A DNA stretch of 64,000 nt from NCBI GenBank assembly GCA_051294375.1, contig CM119269.1, forward strand, positions 5,467,609 through 5,531,608. Reading direction: 5' to 3'. The stretch is from Paraspadella gotoi. Taxonomy: Eukaryota; Animalia; Chaetognatha. Below are positions 8,801-61,188 of this stretch, piece by piece (the stretch's first letter is position 1; every line of letters starts with the position of its first letter). Under the pieces are notes generated by a model. That model had not been told where the DNA came from. It worked only from the letters and a program-made list of their open reading frames with translations, and did no database searches. Made by a program: the position numbers and the translations under genes.

Positions 8801-11800
8801 GCAGAAATTTTCTTAAAAAGGTTAAAAAGCATCAGAAGATCACCGGTTGTGGTCCTGCCCTTAGTCCCGCCGGTTTCCACCATCATGGTAAGCGTCTTAA
8901 AAAAGGGCGTTTGTGCGTCGGGCGACCCCAGCTTCATGATTCCCTTGAAAATCATCTGGACGATCTGCTCGGAGAGTTCCTCGTTCCACTCAGCCAGGGC
9001 AGCGACGATGCTGACGGTGGCCTTCAGATTGAGATTGTCTTTGATCTGTTGGAAGAGGAAGGGAAAGCGCGTCTGTTTGCTGAGCTGCACTGCCCCGCTG
9101 GGCTCCGCCTTAGCGGCCGATAGGGCTTTGAGGTCGGCGTCCGAGAGAGCGAGGCCGTTTCCGTCGTCGGATCCGACAATTCGGGCGTGTTCGACAAGCA
9201 ACGCCACAAGTTGTATCATTTTCTCAAGCGCCGGCGGGCGGAGCTTGTCGTCGGTCAGAAGAATGACCTCCTCGGAATCGTTGGTCGAATCACGATCGTC
9301 GTCCGAATTCTGAAAAAAAAACCCGAATAATAATTAATATTAGTTATTACCAACAAAATCCCTTTTTAAAACAATTGACTTATTATTGTTTAAAGTGATT
9401 TCATTAAATTACCTGCACTGAAGACGAAGATCCTCGCATCGTATCCGACAAAGTATTTGATTTTTGTCCCAGGTAAAAGGCGGACATGACCGAGATGGTG
9501 TCCAGGCCGTTGAGGAAGCGTTTCTCATCGACGCCGAGATTGGCAAAATCTTGAAGCAACGAGAAAAATTCGGTCAAGTTTTTCGTGTAGCGACGTCCTG
9601 TCTTTTCCAAGAGTCGCAGCATCGCCGAGACGAAGTTGGCGATGCAGGAAGGGAGTCGCACCGAGGGCGACCCGTCCTTGCTCGTCGACGTTGATGGACG
9701 AGGCTCTTGCTGGTGCTGTTGTTCCTTTTTCTGTTGCTGCTGTTGGGCCTGTCCGCCGATAAGCGCGGGTTCGAGTGAGGAATTGGGAGCGGGGCTTTGT
9801 AGGCGAGAGTTGGCGCCGCACTGAACGAACTGAGAGTGATGAAGGGCGGGTGGAGTCTTCGGGCGAAGCTGATGAATCACGTGGATGACGATGCGCTTGA
9901 ACATGTCGCGAATCACCTGGCAGGAGAGAAACGGGATTGTAGTAGATTTTGCCCAACTTATGACGCCTTTAATATCAAAATTACTGGAAAAAATTATATA
10001 TCTAAAAAATAATGCTTTTTATGATTCGAATGATCTCTTGTTCAGTAAAATGCAATTAAAAATATAAGTGTGAGGTTTATCCGAAAAGGATATAAACGAA
10101 AATCAGGCCTTAAATTTTTATGACAATTTTACAAAAACAATCATTCATCACATTATGATAATATTTCTTTGACATATTATTATACCTATACTTAATATAA
10201 CCCCCGGGGGTTATGATATATGCATCATTTGATTTTAGTATTAAGCTATAAATGGAATAAAATGAGCAAAATAATGAGAAAAACAGCGCCATCTCTCATC
10301 ACTATGAAAGTCGAAAAATTATGTAGCAGATTAATTTGTGAATTATCTGAAATGAGATCGAGTTCCTCAATCTCATCCCTCTGTTAGAATTACTCGTTTC
10401 ACTATTTTTTTTTTTAGATTTAAAATAACTACATTATTATTTATTTGTTAAAATATTTTTGTGTAAAATATTTAAATATAATATCATTTATCTGTTTGGG
10501 ATCGGGACGTTAGTGTTATCTTCTGGAAATAGAGGATGCATCTTAGACACATTTGAATCCGACAATGTTTTAAATAAACAACCAGTCTCGGTCTTTCTGA
10601 TTTTCGTTTTCCAAGCTCTTTTTAACTAAAAAAGTTTTATTTAAAAAAAAAACTTTTTCGCCCGAGCCAGGGGTGTTAAAGAGCCAAAATATGGAATTTC
10701 ACCTTTTATGAGTATTTTTTAGCTTTTTTCAGTAATTTTTTTAATATATTTATCATTAATCAAGTTAATTACTAATGATAATGCTTTTAAATTATCATAT
10801 TTAACTATTTTTAACATTCATTAACAAAAAATATTAGTTTAAGGCTTAAGCCAGGAGTGTTAAAGAGCTAAAATTTCTAAATTGACTTTTGTGAATATTT
10901 TCAAATAATAAATTTATTATTTTTTTAAGGATTACATATTTTAATCATGATAATAAAAAATTTTGAAAATTTTAAATGGTTTTTTTAAGTTAATTAACAT
11001 AGTTAATTAATTTTTTTATAATTAAAAGCATTAAAAACTATTGACCTATTTCTAAAAAGTTTTTTTTAAAAGATTCATCTTAAAAAAAAGCAAATCATAT
11101 AATGAAATTGCTTACAACAAAGATATAATTATTCAAATGATATCCATATCCAGATTTTATGCGATATCGCATAGAAAATAATAATTTTGTTAATGAACTG
11201 AAACTAATGTTCTAGTTATGGCAATTTTAGCAAAATTAGGTTAATGGTTAGTGTTTATTTTTAACGTTTGAGGTAATTGTAATTCAGGTTGAATAAGTAA
11301 AAGTGAGCATTATGATCAACAAGGTGTTTGTAGTTATACCCAACTGGAAAGTTACAGATGGAAAAGTTTTTAGGGCGGATGATAGAGTTCAAGGTTCATG
11401 ATTGGCCTTGGACGCTAAGCAGAGATTAGGGCTAGGGGAGGGACTTACGTGGGATGCTAGGATAGAAATGATTTATATTTTAATTAAAAATTTTAATTTA
11501 GACTTTAGAAAAACTTTTTTTATTGAAAAAATGTTTGTTAACATATTCATTGTTTGATCCTTTCTTTTTTGTTGTTTTTAGAGATTACAAAGAAAATTTA
11601 ATGAATTTGTTAACAACGATAAAAATAAAATTGTTAACATATTCATTAAATTTTTTTGTTAACATAAATTTTTTTTATTAATCTAAAAATGCAATAAACA
11701 AGTTCAACACAATGTTTATAATTTAAACTTGTTAATAATTTGCGAATCAAGTAAATTAATTAACAATTAACAATATTATTATATAGTAAAATAGTATCTA

Positions 11801-12899
11801 AATGAATTTATGAATTAATTTAAATAATGAATCGGGCTATAAGAGGTAGTTATTTTTAATGAATCTTTTATAGATCATAACTTTCTTTTCCTTATGTTTT
11901 TAGATTTAGTGAGAAAAACAAAACTTCTTTGTTAAACAATTATTTAATAAAAAAAGTAAAAAACAATTATTTTTTAAAAATTAATTTATATTAAAGAAAA
12001 ATTATTTTATTTAATAACAAAATATTTGTAAATAGAGTTAAACCAAACTATTACTCTTATCCGTACAAAATTTATATTCAGATATCATTTTTTGAATTAT
12101 TTTTTAAATAAAATTATATTTATATTTATAATATAAACATAATTATATTTATATAGTATAAAGTAAACAATTTTTGTTTATAGTAATATCCGAATATTAT
12201 TTAAATAATTTTATCTTATAAGAATTATATTTTATGATTAAAAATTAAAATTAATTGCTTTGGATCATAGAAGTTTTTGGGGTTTTCAGATTTAAAAAAT
12301 ATTATTAAATTAATTGATTAACTTAAAGCTGTGGTAAGTCGCCTCAAAGCATTTAAAGATATCAAATATTTTCATTACCATAATTAAATTACGTTATCTT
12401 TAAAAAAATAATAAATTATAATTTATAAATATTAAAAAAAATATTTAAACATTTTAGCTCAACACCCGTGGCTTAAGCTAAAAACTAATATTTTTTTAAT
12501 GAATGGTTTTAAAAACAGTTAAATAGGGTAAATTAAAATCATTATCAGAAGTAATTAACTTGATTAAAGATTATTATATTAAAATAATTAACTGGAAAAA
12601 GCTAAAAAATACTAAAAAATGGTGAATTTCCATATTTTGACTCTTTAACACCCCTGGCTCGGGCGAAAAAGGTTTTTTTTTTTTAAATAAAACTTTTTTA
12701 GTTAAATAGAGCTTGGAAAAACGAACAGAATGACACCCAGACTGGTTATCAAATTAAAACTTTGTCGGATTCAAATGTGTCTAATTGCATCTATACAACA
12801 CATGGTTAGATTACTTTGTTCCAGTTTTCTAATAGATATCGGACATCATTCCTGTTGGAAAATCATTAATGAGAAACTCATAAATGATAAGAGAGAGGA

Positions 12900-54229: not shown

Positions 54230-55414
54230 TCATTTGTCATCCTTAAAGTCTTCGCCTAATAACTTCTGCTTTTCTTTCTCCAGCTTCCTCCTCTCCCATT
54301 CCTTGTCGATATAGTCTACGTCGTACAATCTCTCAAACTTTTTTCGAAGTCTTTTCGAGTATTCTAGAGATGGTAAGATTTCATCGCGCATGAGGCTGTT
54401 ATAGTCCGGATTCAGTGGAATATCTCCCGCTGCGTCGGCCACTATTCGTTGGGTGATCTCGCCCGTTTTGACGGCCTTCATGTAGTCCTCGGCCAATTGG
54501 GCCTTGTGATGTAAATCAAGCTCGGTGAGAATCCGCTTCCCGTCCTCGTCCCATCGATCTTCCATGGCGGCGACCTCAGCTTCGGTGAGGGATTGAGTGT
54601 ATCGGATCTCTTTGGCCTCCATGACAGAAAGGGGTTTACCCATTTTGACCGACATGTCCACGTCTAGCAACATGTCTCCCCACCTGGGCCAATTTTTCGG
54701 GTGGGAAGGATCATCGGGGCTGGCGTCGTCAATTGTCGAGTTTAACGCCTCCATATCGAACGTGTCTTCGTCGACGAGCAGCTCCGGCGTAAAAAGAGTC
54801 AGATTCTCAGGAGGAATCAAGGCGGCGGCGACCATACGTTGCTCGCTGGAGAGAAAGTTATAGGTAGATATGGCTTGCTCCGTGCGGAGGATCTCGATCT
54901 GAAGGCCGACGCGGCGACAATACTCGAGGACGGGGCCTTTGTCCCAAAGGGTCGTCCCGTCGCCGTCCCCGAGGATTAAGACGTCGAGACGAGGCTCGAG
55001 AAGGCTAAAGAGGGACAGCGATTCCGGAGTGATGTCGGTGGGGCTGGAGACTCGCCAGCAAAAGGCGCCGCGGGGAAAGAGGACGCAGGGTCCCATGATC
55101 TGAAAGCCGTTGGAGAGACGGAATCCCATCGGGCCGAAGGAAACAACGAAGTAGACATCCCTGTCCTCAGCCTCGTTGAGAATTTCTATAGAATTACCGG
55201 GGGGAATGCCGTCGGCCTCATCGGAGTGGCAACGAACCGACTTGTGAAAGGGGAAAGGGCAGAAAGGCGGGTGGCGGGTGCCGCTTGTCGATAACGAAGA
55301 AAGAACGGCACGGAAATGGACGCCCGGTACGTAGGACGCTACTTCATAAGAGAGAAAAAAATTCTGCGTTGCCAGACGAAACAGCGATGAACGAAAAACA
55401 CGCCGGAGAACCAT
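54230..55414 (-). CDS. NDUFAF3: Complex I assembly factor NDUFAF3 (Mth938-like) with a long C-terminal extension (intronless)
   Basis: GFRLSNG, GPCVLFP, ITPESLSLFSLLEPRLDVLILG, TEQAISTYNFLSSEQRMVAAALIPP, plus a mitochondrial-presequence-like N-terminus. Confidence 0.9.
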   Translation of the reverse strand: MVLRRVFRSSLFRLATQNFFLSYEVASYVPGVHFRAVLSSLSTSGTRHPPFCPFPFHKSVRCHSDEADGIPPGNSIEILNEAEDRDVYFVVSFGPMGFRLSNGFQIMGPCVLFPRGAFCWRVSSPTDITPESLSLFSLLEPRLDVLILGDGDGTTLWDKGPVLEYCRRVGLQIEILRTEQAISTYNFLSSEQRMVAAALIPPENLTLFTPELLVDEDTFDMEALNSTIDDASPDDPSHPKNWPRWGDMLLDVDMSVKMGKPLSVMEAKEIRYTQSLTEAEVAAMEDRWDEDGKRILTELDLHHKAQLAEDYMKAVKTGEITQRIVADAAGDIPLNPDYNSLMRDEILPSLEYSKRLRKKFERLYDVDYIDKEWERRKLEKEKQKLLGEDFKDDK

Positions 55415-55845
55415 TTTCTGATTAGACCTTCAGTTCAGTCACAATTTTACTGAGTAATTATTAAGCAAGATATCTAATAAATAGTAATGAACGGCAAATT
55501 CTTTTTTCAACATAATTTTATATTGGCCGACTGGAGTTAGGGTTAAAGTTAAGGCAATTAAAAAATATTTTTATTATTTTTTTTTCAGTAATTAAATAAA
55601 TAAAATTTTACTTTTAATCACCAGGATTTTAACTTTTTTAAAAATAATAATATTAAAATTATTATCTTATGATTTCAACCTTAAACTCTTAAACCCAAAC
55701 TAACCCTAATCATAACCCCGCCTAACCCCAATCTGCGAAAAAAAATTATGCCATAAAACTTTTACACAATATTTGGCATAATTTTACTTTCGGGGAAGGG
55801 TTTGGTTTACGGTATGGTGGACTAAAATCCACCAACCGTTCATCA

Positions 55846-55918
55846 GCGGCCATTGGTGGCGGAGGCAAGTCATTCGCCTCCCAACCCAAAGGTCCGGGGT
55901 TCTAGCCCGGTGGCCGCC
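55846..55918 (+). ncRNA. tRNA-derived (SINE-head-like) sequence with Pol III A/B boxes; not a canonical tRNA
   Basis: Closing stem GCGGCCA/TGGCCGC; A-box-like TGGCGGAGGCA with TGGC/GTCA stem; anticodon-loop-like CTCCCAA without a good stem; AGGTC variable region; T-arm CCGGG-GTTCTAG-CCCGG (B box GGTTCTAGCCC). Confidence 0.75.
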
Positions 55919-55919
55919 T

Positions 55920-55995
55920 AGCAGTTAAGAGGGACGGGGCGCTTAACCCGCCTGTAACACGGTGTTACAGCCTGATCCGAAGCTCAGGGACTGCT
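55920..55995 (+). ncRNA. Putative twister ribozyme, permuted type P5 variant (family B), fused 3' of the tRNA-like head
   Basis: P5 AGCAGTT/GACTGCT; AA; P2' GAGG; GA; CGGG; GCGCT; T^AA (55944/55945); P2 CCC; GC; P3 CTGTAACAC/GTGTTACAG; P4 CCTGA/TCAGG with loop TCCG-AA-GC. CGGG:TCCG and GC:GC form the two pseudoknots. Confidence 0.8.
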
Positions 55996-56825
55996 TATAT
56001 TGAACGGTTCTGTCACTAACATATAACAATTATTACTGTCTCCTCAACGGGTTATTTAGTAGATTGATATGGAAATGATAAAATTTAAAAAAATTAAAAT
56101 TAAGCATATAAAATATAAAAATAAAAAAAAAAACATTAATAGATTCATTTTTTAATTTTATACATTAGTGGGTACCAGTGAGCTATATTTATATATAATA
56201 ATAAGTATATAATATGTTAAAATTTCAAAATACAAATATTAAAATTTCAAGATCGGATTTGGTTTCCTTGCAAAAAGTTAATATAATAATGTATAATTCT
56301 ATTTTAAAAATTCTTTCATTAAGTTGGTCAAAAATTTAAAAAACTTTATTTAAGACGCTAATTTTCACTTTCCAGTTCAAAAATTTATTTTTTTAAAATT
56401 TTAATCTATATAATTTTTAAAAAAGATTTATTTTATTTTATTTATTTTCTTTTATAAACGCTAATATGATAGTTTTTAAGATATAACTGCTAAATTTTGA
56501 TTCCAAACTTTCACTTCACCCTATTGTTTAGTGTTAAGGATGATTTAAGGGACCGGGGATTTGAATTTTTGTTTTTAAATTTAAAAAAATATTACTTAAC
56601 CTAAACCTAAACCCTTTTAAACCTAGTCAGTGAAAATAAAATTAACCCTAAAATTCTACCCAATGTTACTCTAAAGAAGCGAAAGTAAAAGATATCCTAA
56701 TTACAAAAACATTATAAATGAAACAAATAAAATTATTCAACCTTTGCTACGGCTGGTCAGTAGTTTGTTAATTCATTTAATTTTGTTTTCTCTCTAACAT
56801 CGAGACTGTTTGCGCAATATATATT

Positions 56826-57025
56826 TGGGTTACTTTTACTTTCATCGACCGGGGTTAGGGAGGGGTTAGGGAGGGTTTAGGGTTAAGTGTGGTTTAGGGT
56901 TAGGGTTAAAAAGGTTCCGAGTTAGGGTAATTAAGTAATAATTTTTTAATTTTTAAAAAAAATTTTTTTTGGGATAGTTTTTCAAAAGCCGCAAAAACCG
57001 CAGTCGGCGAAAGTAAAATTTAGCC
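56826..57025 (+). mobile_element. About 200-bp MITE-like element with short inverted ends and internal degenerate TTAGGG repeats
   Basis: Ends TTTTACTTTCATCGAC...GTCGGCGAAAGTAAAA; interior GGGTTAGGG/TTAGGGTTAGGG. Inverted copy at 58201-58401, fragments at about 55520-55790, 56500-56690 and 59400-59426. Confidence 0.7.
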
Positions 57026-57127: not shown

Positions 57128-58200
57128 AACGAATTGATTTATGAAACAAATATTTTTACAAACTCTCTTTCTTTCATTAAACTTCAAAGTTAGCGGTAGC
57201 CGACCAAATTCAAATTTTAATGGAAACAGCATTAAACTAATCCATTATTGGTATTAATTATTGTATTAAAATATTTTTTTGCAAAAATGTTCCGAACCAT
57301 GAATAATTCGTTAATATTATTATATTGCTATATAATATCAAAAATTTTTTTTGGACATTTTAAGTTTTTTTAATTGATTTAGATTTAGAGCTTAAAAAGT
57401 TAAGCAAAAAATATAATAACTTTTTAAAATTTTGATGTTTTATTACTTAAAATTAGTAAAAACTGTTAAAATAATCGGATGATGATGATGATTTTTTAAG
57501 GTTTTTCCCAGTTTTGACCCACTTATCATCAAAATATTGAAAAAAGAATTATACTTTGTGTAGACAACTTTTTATAAGCTATCTGAATCTGCTTTTAAAA
57601 ATACAAAATTTAAAAACAAATTTTTGACATATCCTATCTATAAATAAATATTAAAAAATTAATTACTAATGCTTCTAGCCATTTTAAAAAAATTTGGTCC
57701 ATTGAAAGTTTTTTAAGAAATGTATGAAGTTTCATTTGGAAATGTTCCCAAATCAAACTTCTGACCCACCCCATTGACAAAGTTTGGCTCTATCAAAGTC
57801 TGATATTTGTTTCATAAATCAATTTAATTTTGCGCTGATGAAAGATTACATTTAATTTTTTATTTTTTAATGAAACTTATTGTACGTAAATAAACAATTC
57901 GATGTCCGCAACCAACCTTAGTTACTAATGGTCGGTACTTTGTTAATCCATTTAATTTTGTTTTCCCTTTAGCGTCGAATCACAGTTTGCGCAATAATAT
58001 ATACTTTTTTTAACAGTAATACAAATTTTATCATTTAATAATAATAATTGTTTTAAATTTATTTTAATTATTATTTTTATGTTTGAAATAAAAAATGAAT
58101 TGTTTAAATTGTCTAAAAATATTTGTTTTACAAATCAATACGTTTTTGCCCAGATTGAAGCTGAAACATATCCAAAATTTATGTTTCTTAATAAAACTTA

Positions 58201-58401
58201 GGCTAAATTTTACTTTCGCTGACCACGGTTATGGCGGCTTTGAAAAAAAAAGTATTTATTTTTTTAAAAAATATTACCTAATTAACCTAACCCTAAACCC
58301 TAACCATCCCTAAACCACCCATAACCCTAAACAACCCCTTACACTAAACCACCCTTAAATTATCCTTAACCCTAACCCCGGTCGGCGAAAATAAAAACCC
58401 A
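58201..58401 (-). mobile_element. Second copy (inverted) of the TTAGGG-containing MITE-like element
   Basis: GGCTAAATTTTACTTTCGCTGAC...AACCCTAACCCCGGTCGGCGAAAATAAAA. Confidence 0.7.
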
Positions 58402-58689: not shown

Positions 58690-58830
58690 AAGTTAAGGTT
58701 AAAAATAAGTTAGGGGTAAGTTAGGGTTAAGTTTATGAGTAAGTTAGGTATAAGTTAGGGGTAAAGGTAAGTTTGGGTTAGGGGTAAGTTTGGGTTAGGG
58801 GTAAGTTTGGGGTAAATTAGAGTTAAATTT
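58690..58830 (+). repeat. Telomere-like minisatellite (GTTAGGGGTAAG / GTTTGGGTTAGGGGTAA units)
   Basis: Visible tandem degenerate TTAGGG-based units. Confidence 0.8.
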
Positions 58831-60191: not shown

Positions 60192-61188
60192 TTTTTAGTC
60201 GGATCTGCTTATGAGCAGATCCCGACTCTATAATCCACTTTGTCGGTCCGTCGGTCCCCTCAATCTTGTTAATCTTGTCGGGCATTAACTTATTTCATGT
60301 CAGAACATCGATTTATGATAAATTATGCATTATGATGTAATCCTGGGATGATAGTCATTCATCGTAAATAAAACAGACAAATGCGTGTATCAATGAGAGA
60401 GAGAGAAAAAGCTGGACAGCCGCTGCAGAGCAAACTCGTTTTTATTAATTCACTTTGTCGGTCCGTCGGTCCGCCCCCTCAATATTGTCGGGCACTCACT
60501 TATATCATGTCAGAACATCGAATTATGATAAATTATGCAAAAAAAAACAATGTCCGTCCGTCTGTCCCACCTTAAACACTAATTACTCGTGATTGGATGG
60601 ATGAATTGGAATGAAATCTTGTGTGTGGGTAGGGAAGTGTGTGATTGAGCTGTACATGAAGTTTCGATGGAATCGTCCGAGTGGAAATGAGTTTAAATGG
60701 AAAAAACAAAAAAATAGATTTCACTATTTGAACACCAATTACTCATGAGTGAATGGGGCGATTGACTTGAAATTTTGTATTTGGGTGATTAAACTGGAAA
60801 TCAAGTTTTGATGGAAACGTTTGAGTAGAAATTAGTTTAAATAGAAAAAAACAAAAAACCTGTTTTACTAATTGATTATGCTTCTTTTTTTTATATTTTT
60901 AATGTAAATGCAGGATGTATTAATAAATCAAATAATTAATCAATTAGTCAATTAATTAATCAATAATTAATTAATCAGTCAATCAATCAACTCAATTGTT
61001 ATCGACATTATTCTCATCGTCGTCATTGCTTTTATCGTGGTTAGTGACGAAAAGACCTAAAAACAAACATTTAGGATCAAATTAATAAATTGCCTAATTA
61101 ATTAATTAACTTGAATTATTTAATTTTTAATGAATTAATTACCGATAATGATCGTGGGCAGATCCGACATTGTTTGCTCAAACTTGTT
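60192..61188 (+). mobile_element. Helentron-associated non-autonomous element (HINE/DINE-1-like)
   Basis: T-rich 5' end; subterminal inverted repeat GTCGGATCTGC (60198) / GCAGATCCGAC (61158) with a local partial inverted copy; GTCC/GTCG microsatellite; internal duplication (about 60235-60330 vs 60450-60540); ends CTTGTT. Confidence 0.6.

Follow-up and report, generated by a model that had tools for sequence, protein, structure and literature searches.

A likely solo LTR with a degenerate tRNA-like domain and a twister-like motif in Paraspadella gotoi

Helenus (TRIMp3) elements have short LTRs with a non-functional tRNA-like part and a GGTTC B box and are found also as solo LTRs. In animals, they generate 4-bp duplications and presumably depend on Gypsy elements for their mobility, their internal regions mostly start with a few bases followed by TGG and end in purine runs, and one published animal LTR begins with TA (Kojima 2024, PMC10886601). 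Plant LTR retrozymes, known by their circular RNAs, are likewise non-coding LTR elements, with a self-cleaving type III hammerhead ribozyme inside the LTR, a 4-bp duplication, a primer site, a polypurine tract, and solo LTRs (Cervera et al. 2016, PMC4918200). According to reviews, LTR retrozymes are plant elements, and animal retrozymes have no LTR, primer site, or purine tract (PMC7229834); a 2026 preprint assigns the LTR type “primarily” to plants (bioRxiv 10.64898/2026.07.22.740005). Schistosoma repeats combine a tRNA-like Pol III part with an adjacent ribozyme (PMC6765202), and animal non-LTR retrozymes follow a logic of cutting, circularisation, and reverse transcription (PMC7229834); both are tandem repeats with type I hammerheads and are devoid of LTRs, primer site, purine tract, and 4-bp duplications (PMC6765202, PMC7229834). 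Twisters are tied to RTE non-LTR elements in the literature, and the Schistosoma mansoni Perere-3 twister is located at the 5' end of a non-LTR element (PMC8501958).

We analysed a stretch of 64,000 nucleotides from Paraspadella gotoi (hereafter the window), in which a tRNA-like domain is followed, after one spacer base, by a twister-like fold, both read from the sequence of the plus strand (Table 1). The initial annotation had reported these two parts together with an inverted repeat and a hairpin, and each of the four is found where it had been placed. The description as a GC-rich island in AT-rich DNA also holds, with 53% GC in the unit against about 21% in the flanks, and the distance given as ~430 bp upstream of a divergent first gene was measured as 432 bp between the tRNA-like/twister feature and the ATG of the minus-strand ORF 54230-55414 (399 bp from the likely solo LTR delimited below). 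As for the extent of the unit, the parts named initially are present, but the true unit is larger: it spans 55813-56046 including the tail from 56010 onward, is multi-copy, and is flanked by a 4-bp duplication.

Table 1. Features of the unit and of its twister-like motif, with positions in the window.
Feature	Position	Strand	Basis or remark
Left TSD copy ACGG	55809..55812	+	identical to 56047-56050
Whole unit, 234 nt, TA...CA termini	55813..56046	+	contig loose ends, 5/5 runs
7-bp hairpin, U3-like part, upstream of likely Pol III start	55815..55834	+	sequence, fold
5' arm of 9-bp inverted repeat closing tRNA + twister domain	55834..55842	+	pair probabilities 0.38-1.0 (unit ensemble)
Degenerate tRNA-like domain, likely internal Pol III promoter	55846..55918	+	ARAGORN lowered threshold; Rfam tRNA sub-cut-off
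A-box-like	55854-55865	+	inside tRNA-like domain
B-box-like	55899-55907	+	inside tRNA-like domain
Candidate P5-permuted twister-type ribozyme	55920..55995	+	pair check; model from Rfam-recognised twisters 29.6 bits; comparisons
P5	55920-25/55990-95	+	6 bp, Watson-Crick
P2	55929-32/55947-49	+	3 pairs, A55930 bulged
P1		+	single G-U pair; pair check
General-base position	G55933	+	pair check
T1 pseudoknot	55935-37/55977-79	+	3 bp, Watson-Crick
Predicted cleavage site U/A	55944..55945	+	alignment to twister UAA loop
T2 pseudoknot	55950-51/55982-83	+	2 bp, Watson-Crick
P3	55952-58/55964-70	+	7 bp, Watson-Crick
P4	55971-75/55984-88	+	5 bp, Watson-Crick
L4	55976-83	+	closing pair A-U
3' arm of 9-bp inverted repeat	56001..56009	+	sequence, pair probabilities
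U5-like tail, belongs to repeat	56010..56046	+	high depth as far as 56046
Right TSD copy ACGG	56047..56050	+	identical to 55809-55812

The region is contained in nine sequencing runs of one organism from three studies, five of which (X1, X3, X5, X6, and X9) were compared. The run that covers the region best may stem from the source of the window itself. Contig loose ends pile up at 55812/55813 and 56046/56047 in all five runs. Within X3, at least 63 + 167 (230) contigs break at the former and at least 109 + 75 (184) at the latter position, counted from the 24 of 595 loose-end rows listed, and beyond the unit ends the contigs of this run enter AT-rich flanks that mostly differ from one another (agreement 0.39-0.43), showing many insertion sites. 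From 55813 to 56046, the summed depth is raised by some four orders of magnitude, amounting to about 0.3-1.3 million in X1, where the flank contig has 35, and to 2.7-5.5 million in X3, where it has 211; summed depth is not equal to copy number, overlapping short contigs inflating it by an estimated factor of up to about 30, and for the copy number we claim hundreds to many thousands only. In each of the five runs, the tRNA-like and the twister part have a similar depth and share the same fixed ends; they thus travel together in one mobile unit, in line with the initial annotation. A second copy of the unit was not found inside the 64-kb window, and no empty-site contig was seen, the flanks being without coverage in X5, X6, and X9. 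The ACGG duplication was observed for the single copy with both flanks known (1/1), at which 3-, 5-, 6-, and 7-bp matches fail, the chance of any 4-mer match at the fixed ends being 1.2%. This copy differs from the majority at positions 55859 and 56022. CpG sites account for 20 of 36 variable places (from 40 of the 86 rows listed), as expected for methylated, decaying copies.

The unit begins 33 nt upstream of its tRNA-like part and has a sharp end at 56046 without an A-tail; it thereby fits a division into U3 and U5 and not a SINE. Some copies are preceded at 55812 by purines as majority letters, GGAAAGGGGG, a run observed over 30 contigs in X1 and 42 in X3, i.e., in two of the four runs with a row listed at this position, both from one study, with the run being absent from the small rows of X6 and X9. 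Behind 56046, a C followed by TGGTGA was detected in X3 (11 contigs), in one of the six rows listed there. Purine run and TGG start are both majority readings drawn from mixed contigs (agreement 0.42-0.44), and repeated insertion next to some other repeat could produce them. Among the joints listed (15 of 68 and 15 of 50), none represented a contig joining two LTRs. We consider 55813-56046 likely to be a solo LTR whose parent was a small LTR retrotransposon without coding capacity, of the Helenus/TRIMp3 type. In common with Helenus, it is a short LTR (234 nt lies within the listed LTR sizes) with a non-functional tRNA-like part, a 4-bp duplication, and a GGTTC as in the B box, here at 55898-55902; furthermore, the few bases followed by TGG and the purine tract at the ends of Helenus internal regions resemble the sequences abutting some copies of the unit, and a tRNA-Trp primer site given in the same article begins with the same six letters, TGGTGA (PMC10886601). 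In contrast to Helenus, the 128 nt after the tRNA part hold the twister-like motif and no T-run, and the A box at 55854-55865 reads TGGTG/AGG instead of the TRGCY/YGG of “most” families (PMC10886601). The copy at this locus is likely a relic, originating from LTR-LTR recombination or from a short cDNA, and gives no sign of a host role. The local functions proposed initially, namely cutting of divergent transcripts and a TFIIIC boundary, are required by none of the findings.

tRNA-derived SINEs are characterised by a 5' end at the Pol III start, a simple-repeat or A tail, and variable duplications, hallmarks which the unit does not display. From the SINE/retrozyme-like RNA of the initial annotation, the mobile and retrozyme-like character was retained, while the SINE assignment is contradicted by the 33-nt lead, the fixed ends, the missing A-tail, and the 4-bp duplication. 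The same features, together with the purine tract and the TGG start, render it very unlikely that a tRNA-headed SINE or a tandem repeat of the Schistosoma type, equipped with a ribozyme and moved by a non-LTR element, is at hand, even though the succession of tRNA head and ribozyme corresponds to the Schistosoma repeats and the copy number is high; animal non-LTR retrozymes, moreover, are without LTR marks and show longer duplications (PMC7229834). A dispersed monomeric repeat cutting itself behind its own promoter would lose this promoter, as argued for the Schistosoma repeats (PMC6765202), which further makes a SINE unlikely. We regard it as highly improbable that the unit is a non-autonomous rolling-circle DNA element (Helentron/HINE-like) of the minus strand that has captured the RNA motifs. 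On this strand, an inverted-repeat arm does directly precede the terminal hairpin, so that the 9-bp repeat would presumably be the sub-terminal inverted repeat and 55815-55834 the 3' hairpin, but the copy at 55813-56046 lacks a TT target and is flanked by a 4-bp duplication, the purine tract and the TGG start are at odds with such an element, and both RNA motifs are read on the plus strand.

ARAGORN in default mode predicted no tRNA gene, and the Rfam tRNA score of the domain was 13.2 bits in comparison to a cut-off of 29. With a lowered threshold, ARAGORN returned the domain as one of 43 candidates in the 64-kb window, drawing a cloverleaf similar to tRNA-Gly(CCC) in which the anticodon stem is mispaired. 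CCC is found at the anticodon position, and the pair probabilities of the acceptor helix range from 0.89 to 1.0. The A-box-like and B-box-like stretches each deviate from the Pol III consensus in one position. Owing to the weak ARAGORN and Rfam scores, the mispaired stem, and the one-mismatch boxes, the domain is, judged by its sequence, a promoter-like tRNA relic and no tRNA gene. No TTT occurs on the plus strand of the unit, the first TTTT following at 56148; since TTTT is absent from 64% of shuffles as well, the lack of a T-run is to be understood as permissive only.

The part downstream of the spacer base had been described as a complete P5-type twister. All modules are present in the P5-permuted order, but P1, P2, and the pair closing L4 are non-canonical, and Rfam does not recognise the motif. 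Both pseudoknots are paired (five of five T1 and T2 pairs being Watson-Crick), and the conserved twister bases G55933, A55934, A55945, A55946, U55976, A55980-81, G55982, and C55983 are in place, while the canonical 4-bp P2 and G-C pair closing L4 are replaced by 3 bp plus a bulge and by an A-U pair. Rfam searches turned out negative for twisters at the gathering level as well as at E up to 10, with the 64-kb window, 401 nt, or 91 nt as query, and no hammerhead was matched by Rfam either. A strict twister descriptor (4-bp P2) fails at 55920-55995, whereas a relaxed descriptor has its one match in the window at this very site, compared with 24 matching sequences among 200,000 shuffles of the unit and 39 matches in 300 shuffled 64-kb windows. 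As the descriptor had been relaxed after the site was seen, an outside model was sought. It is built from two small-contig cores only, which Rfam scores as twister-P1 at 56.3 and 70.8 bits; their contigs were retrieved with a pattern partly based on 55920-55995, yet they match the Rfam consensus. Within the window, this model ranks 55944-55988 first with 29.6 bits (E 4e-6, a rough value), followed by a runner-up with 12.7. When the core of a known twister was used for a simple scan by sequence, the locus came out on top only narrowly (40 vs 36). The rarity of the relaxed descriptor in shuffles of the unit and the E-value of the outside model place the twister assignment above chance.

Twister-P1 (RF03160) and the S. 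mansoni Perere-3 twister and T-variants have the UAA loop, the GC pseudoknot strand, a near-identical P3, an 8-nt L4 ending in AAGC, and the GA + T1 strand in common with the unit (PMC8501958). Differences concern the P5-permuted order, the 3-nt P2 strand, the 5-bp P4, a T1 of CGG/CCG, and the position inside an LTR. With respect to the Rfam-recognised twisters, two P4 pairs and one T1 pair are changed on both sides with pairing kept. As to variation across copies, none of the 25 variant rows of at least 2% hits G55933, A55934, A55945, A55946, or 55980-55983, and the five non-CpG variable places within the twister fall on a helix end, linkers, and the P3 loop. CpG decay does reach T1 and T2, and G55979>A in T1 amounts to 4-13% of depth while its pairing partner shows no corresponding change. 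We considered a subfamily in which 55935 and 55979 compensate each other in T1 and rejected it, as the shares do not match. Scans of other sequence collections were carried out as well. A metagenome scan with a 15-base pattern, too short for the purpose, yielded 119 loci, none of them (0/119) with twister or tRNA context, and a viral scan gave one match without L4, P4, or an Rfam match. Among prokaryote genomes, two tiny contigs were found to have real twister-P1 motifs unrelated to the element and served solely for the outside model. These motifs, on contigs of <700 bp in bacterial records (L121:50-116 and L122:57-126), are nearly identical to that of S. mansoni, which suggests contamination of these assemblies by a eukaryotic repeat.

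Regarding cleavage, a review considers twister P1 dispensable, treats the G-C pair that closes L4 as essentially invariant, and states that a changed P2 length might disrupt the active site (PMC5408937). In a large screen of about 2600 P1-type twisters, cleavage was unrelated to P2 length and imperfections, P1 imperfections were tolerated too, and strong effects were confined to the pseudoknots, the catalytic bases, A2, and L4 A6 (PMC11662667). All of these sensitive positions are intact at 55920-55995. In a pseudoknot-free model, a competing hairpin of 55935-38 with 55947-50 has a probability of about 0.98, and the MFE fold reaches -29.0 kcal/mol vs -19.1 kcal/mol for the nested active scaffold. 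As modelled, this hairpin could block the twister; plant retrozyme hammerheads are likewise predicted in a blocked fold (PMC4918200). Folding z-scores of the whole unit do not pick a strand, being equally low on the minus strand (-3.94) and the plus strand (-3.50). We consider the twister to be probably active at the family level. If it were instead a dead or incidental twister-derived piece in an ordinary Helenus-type TRIM, with the ribozyme standing outside the cycle, the Rfam miss, the short P2, the A-U closing pair, the blocked nested fold, and the unpaired T1 variant at 4-13% would be accounted for. We rate this as unlikely in view of the three pair-keeping double changes relative to known twisters and the intact sensitive positions; besides, a P5 permutation, as we infer, cannot arise by simply breaking up the P1-type twister of an RTE element.

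Our full reading, to which we assign a probability of roughly 0.55, is that of a solo LTR from a tRNA-promoter TRIM, in which the twister would cut the RNA for circularisation in a manner resembling plant retrozymes. The full element would very probably consist of LTR, primer site, internal region, polypurine tract, and LTR. Transcription by Pol III would begin at the tRNA-like part in the 5' LTR and, the LTR being without a T-run, continue through both LTRs. Each LTR would be cut by its twister at 55944/55945, a step which we hold to be probable and by which the 99-nt tRNA-like head would be dropped; the remaining RNA would be of unit length, with a 5'-OH and a cyclic phosphate at its ends and without a terminal repeat. 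The promoter would survive, because its copy in the 3' LTR lies inside this RNA, and the 99-nt fragment would be a by-product rather than the purpose of cutting. P5 and the 9-bp inverted repeat may clamp the two cut ends together, upon which a host ligase of the RtcB type would close the circle, and RtcB does close animal retrozyme RNAs in vitro (PMC7229834). Finally, a Gypsy helper would reverse-transcribe the circle from a host tRNA primer and integrate the product with a 4-bp duplication. The circularisation step is argued from the fact that an RNA cut twice would be without terminal repeats, as in plant retrozymes, for which circularisation was argued to be necessary before reverse transcription (PMC4918200, Discussion). 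By analogy, the unit would work like an LTR retrozyme without being a member of this group as defined in plants: its host is an animal, a twister replaces the type III hammerhead, the promoter is tRNA-derived, and the LTR is shorter.

The same LTR element could also follow a linear route, in which the 5' twister stays mostly uncut, the 3' twister serves only as a terminator instead of a T-run, and strand transfer takes its ordinary course by means of a 99-nt terminal repeat retained in the RNA. The strong competing hairpin would suit such a route, as would an LTR without a T-run, considering that many Helenus LTRs are T- or pyrimidine-rich just after the tRNA part (by eye). We nevertheless judge it rather improbable, since the two LTRs are identical and nothing known favours cutting the 3' one alone, and since plant retrozymes of the same layout accumulate circles (PMC4918200).

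A ribozyme at the corresponding position was noticed by eye in the LTRs of two gall-wasp Helenus elements, Helenus-2_SyJa-LTR and Helenus-2_SyUm-LTR, where a full type III hammerhead directly follows the tRNA part. It comprises a GUC site, a 7-bp stem I, CUGAUGA, stem II, GAAAC, and a 6-bp stem III, with a 12-nt loop-loop complementarity, also read by eye, and neither LTR has a TTTT after the tRNA part. The article that published these LTRs leaves this hammerhead unmentioned, its text having zero matches for twister and naming hammerhead only in a reference (PMC10886601). Ten twister-like motifs looked for in the consensus file of the same article revealed no twister, although line breaks can hide some (PMC10886601). 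The wasp hammerheads suggest that the design of a ribozyme in a tRNA-promoter LTR arose more than once.

A full-text literature search retrieved neither a twister in an LTR nor a ribozyme in a tRNA-promoter TRIM in titles or abstracts, its scope not extending to Repbase, Dfam, articles under subscription, or the supplement of the first twister publication, so that the family may be catalogued there under another name. We tentatively propose, at somewhat less than even odds, that animals harbour unrecognised Pol III-driven LTR retrozymes, in which a ribozyme has independently replaced the T-run and replication proceeds via circular RNA. If true, this class would comprise the P5-type twister reported here and the type III hammerhead of the gall-wasp Helenus-2 elements, and the former would be the first twister in an LTR. 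It would join tRNA-promoter TRIMs and plant hammerhead retrozymes, groups that have been described separately, bring LTR retrozymes into the animals, add a second class of ribozyme to them, and demonstrate a twister variant missed by Rfam. To our knowledge, most genomic twisters are without a known job; here, a twister would be fixed in a high-copy element, and the layout predicts exact products, namely the 99-nt head, the unit-length RNA, and a circle joined at 55944/55945. Engineered expression of circles by Pol III, twister, and RtcB exists, and the element would be its natural counterpart.

The surroundings of the locus showed further features. Between 528 and 55414 of the window, all Pfam-supported coding ORFs are on the minus strand, closely packed and with short introns (NHE, USP9/24-like, acylpeptide hydrolase, SAC3, Ulp1, RPL32, RPL38, RPB11, and DUF498), an arrangement that suggests an operon-like cluster. 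A long imperfect inverted repeat at about 10543-12784, whose nested arms (70-110 nt, 81-90%) extend over about 2.2 kb, probably represents an element of the foldback or MITE-like kind. Small repeats that have degenerate TTAGGG-like arms and recurrently show an end motif of the CGAAAGTAAAA type form a family with members at 55690-55810, 56600-57020, 58200-58400, 58690-58820, and 59400, and the LTR at 55813-56046 sits in or beside one of these arms. Just downstream of the LTR, 56069-56104 represents a second, separate multi-copy sequence with a summed depth of 50000-78000 in X3. At 60200-60540, two similar blocks about 210 bp apart, with starts near 60238 and 60451, are possibly a local duplication or a repeat remnant.
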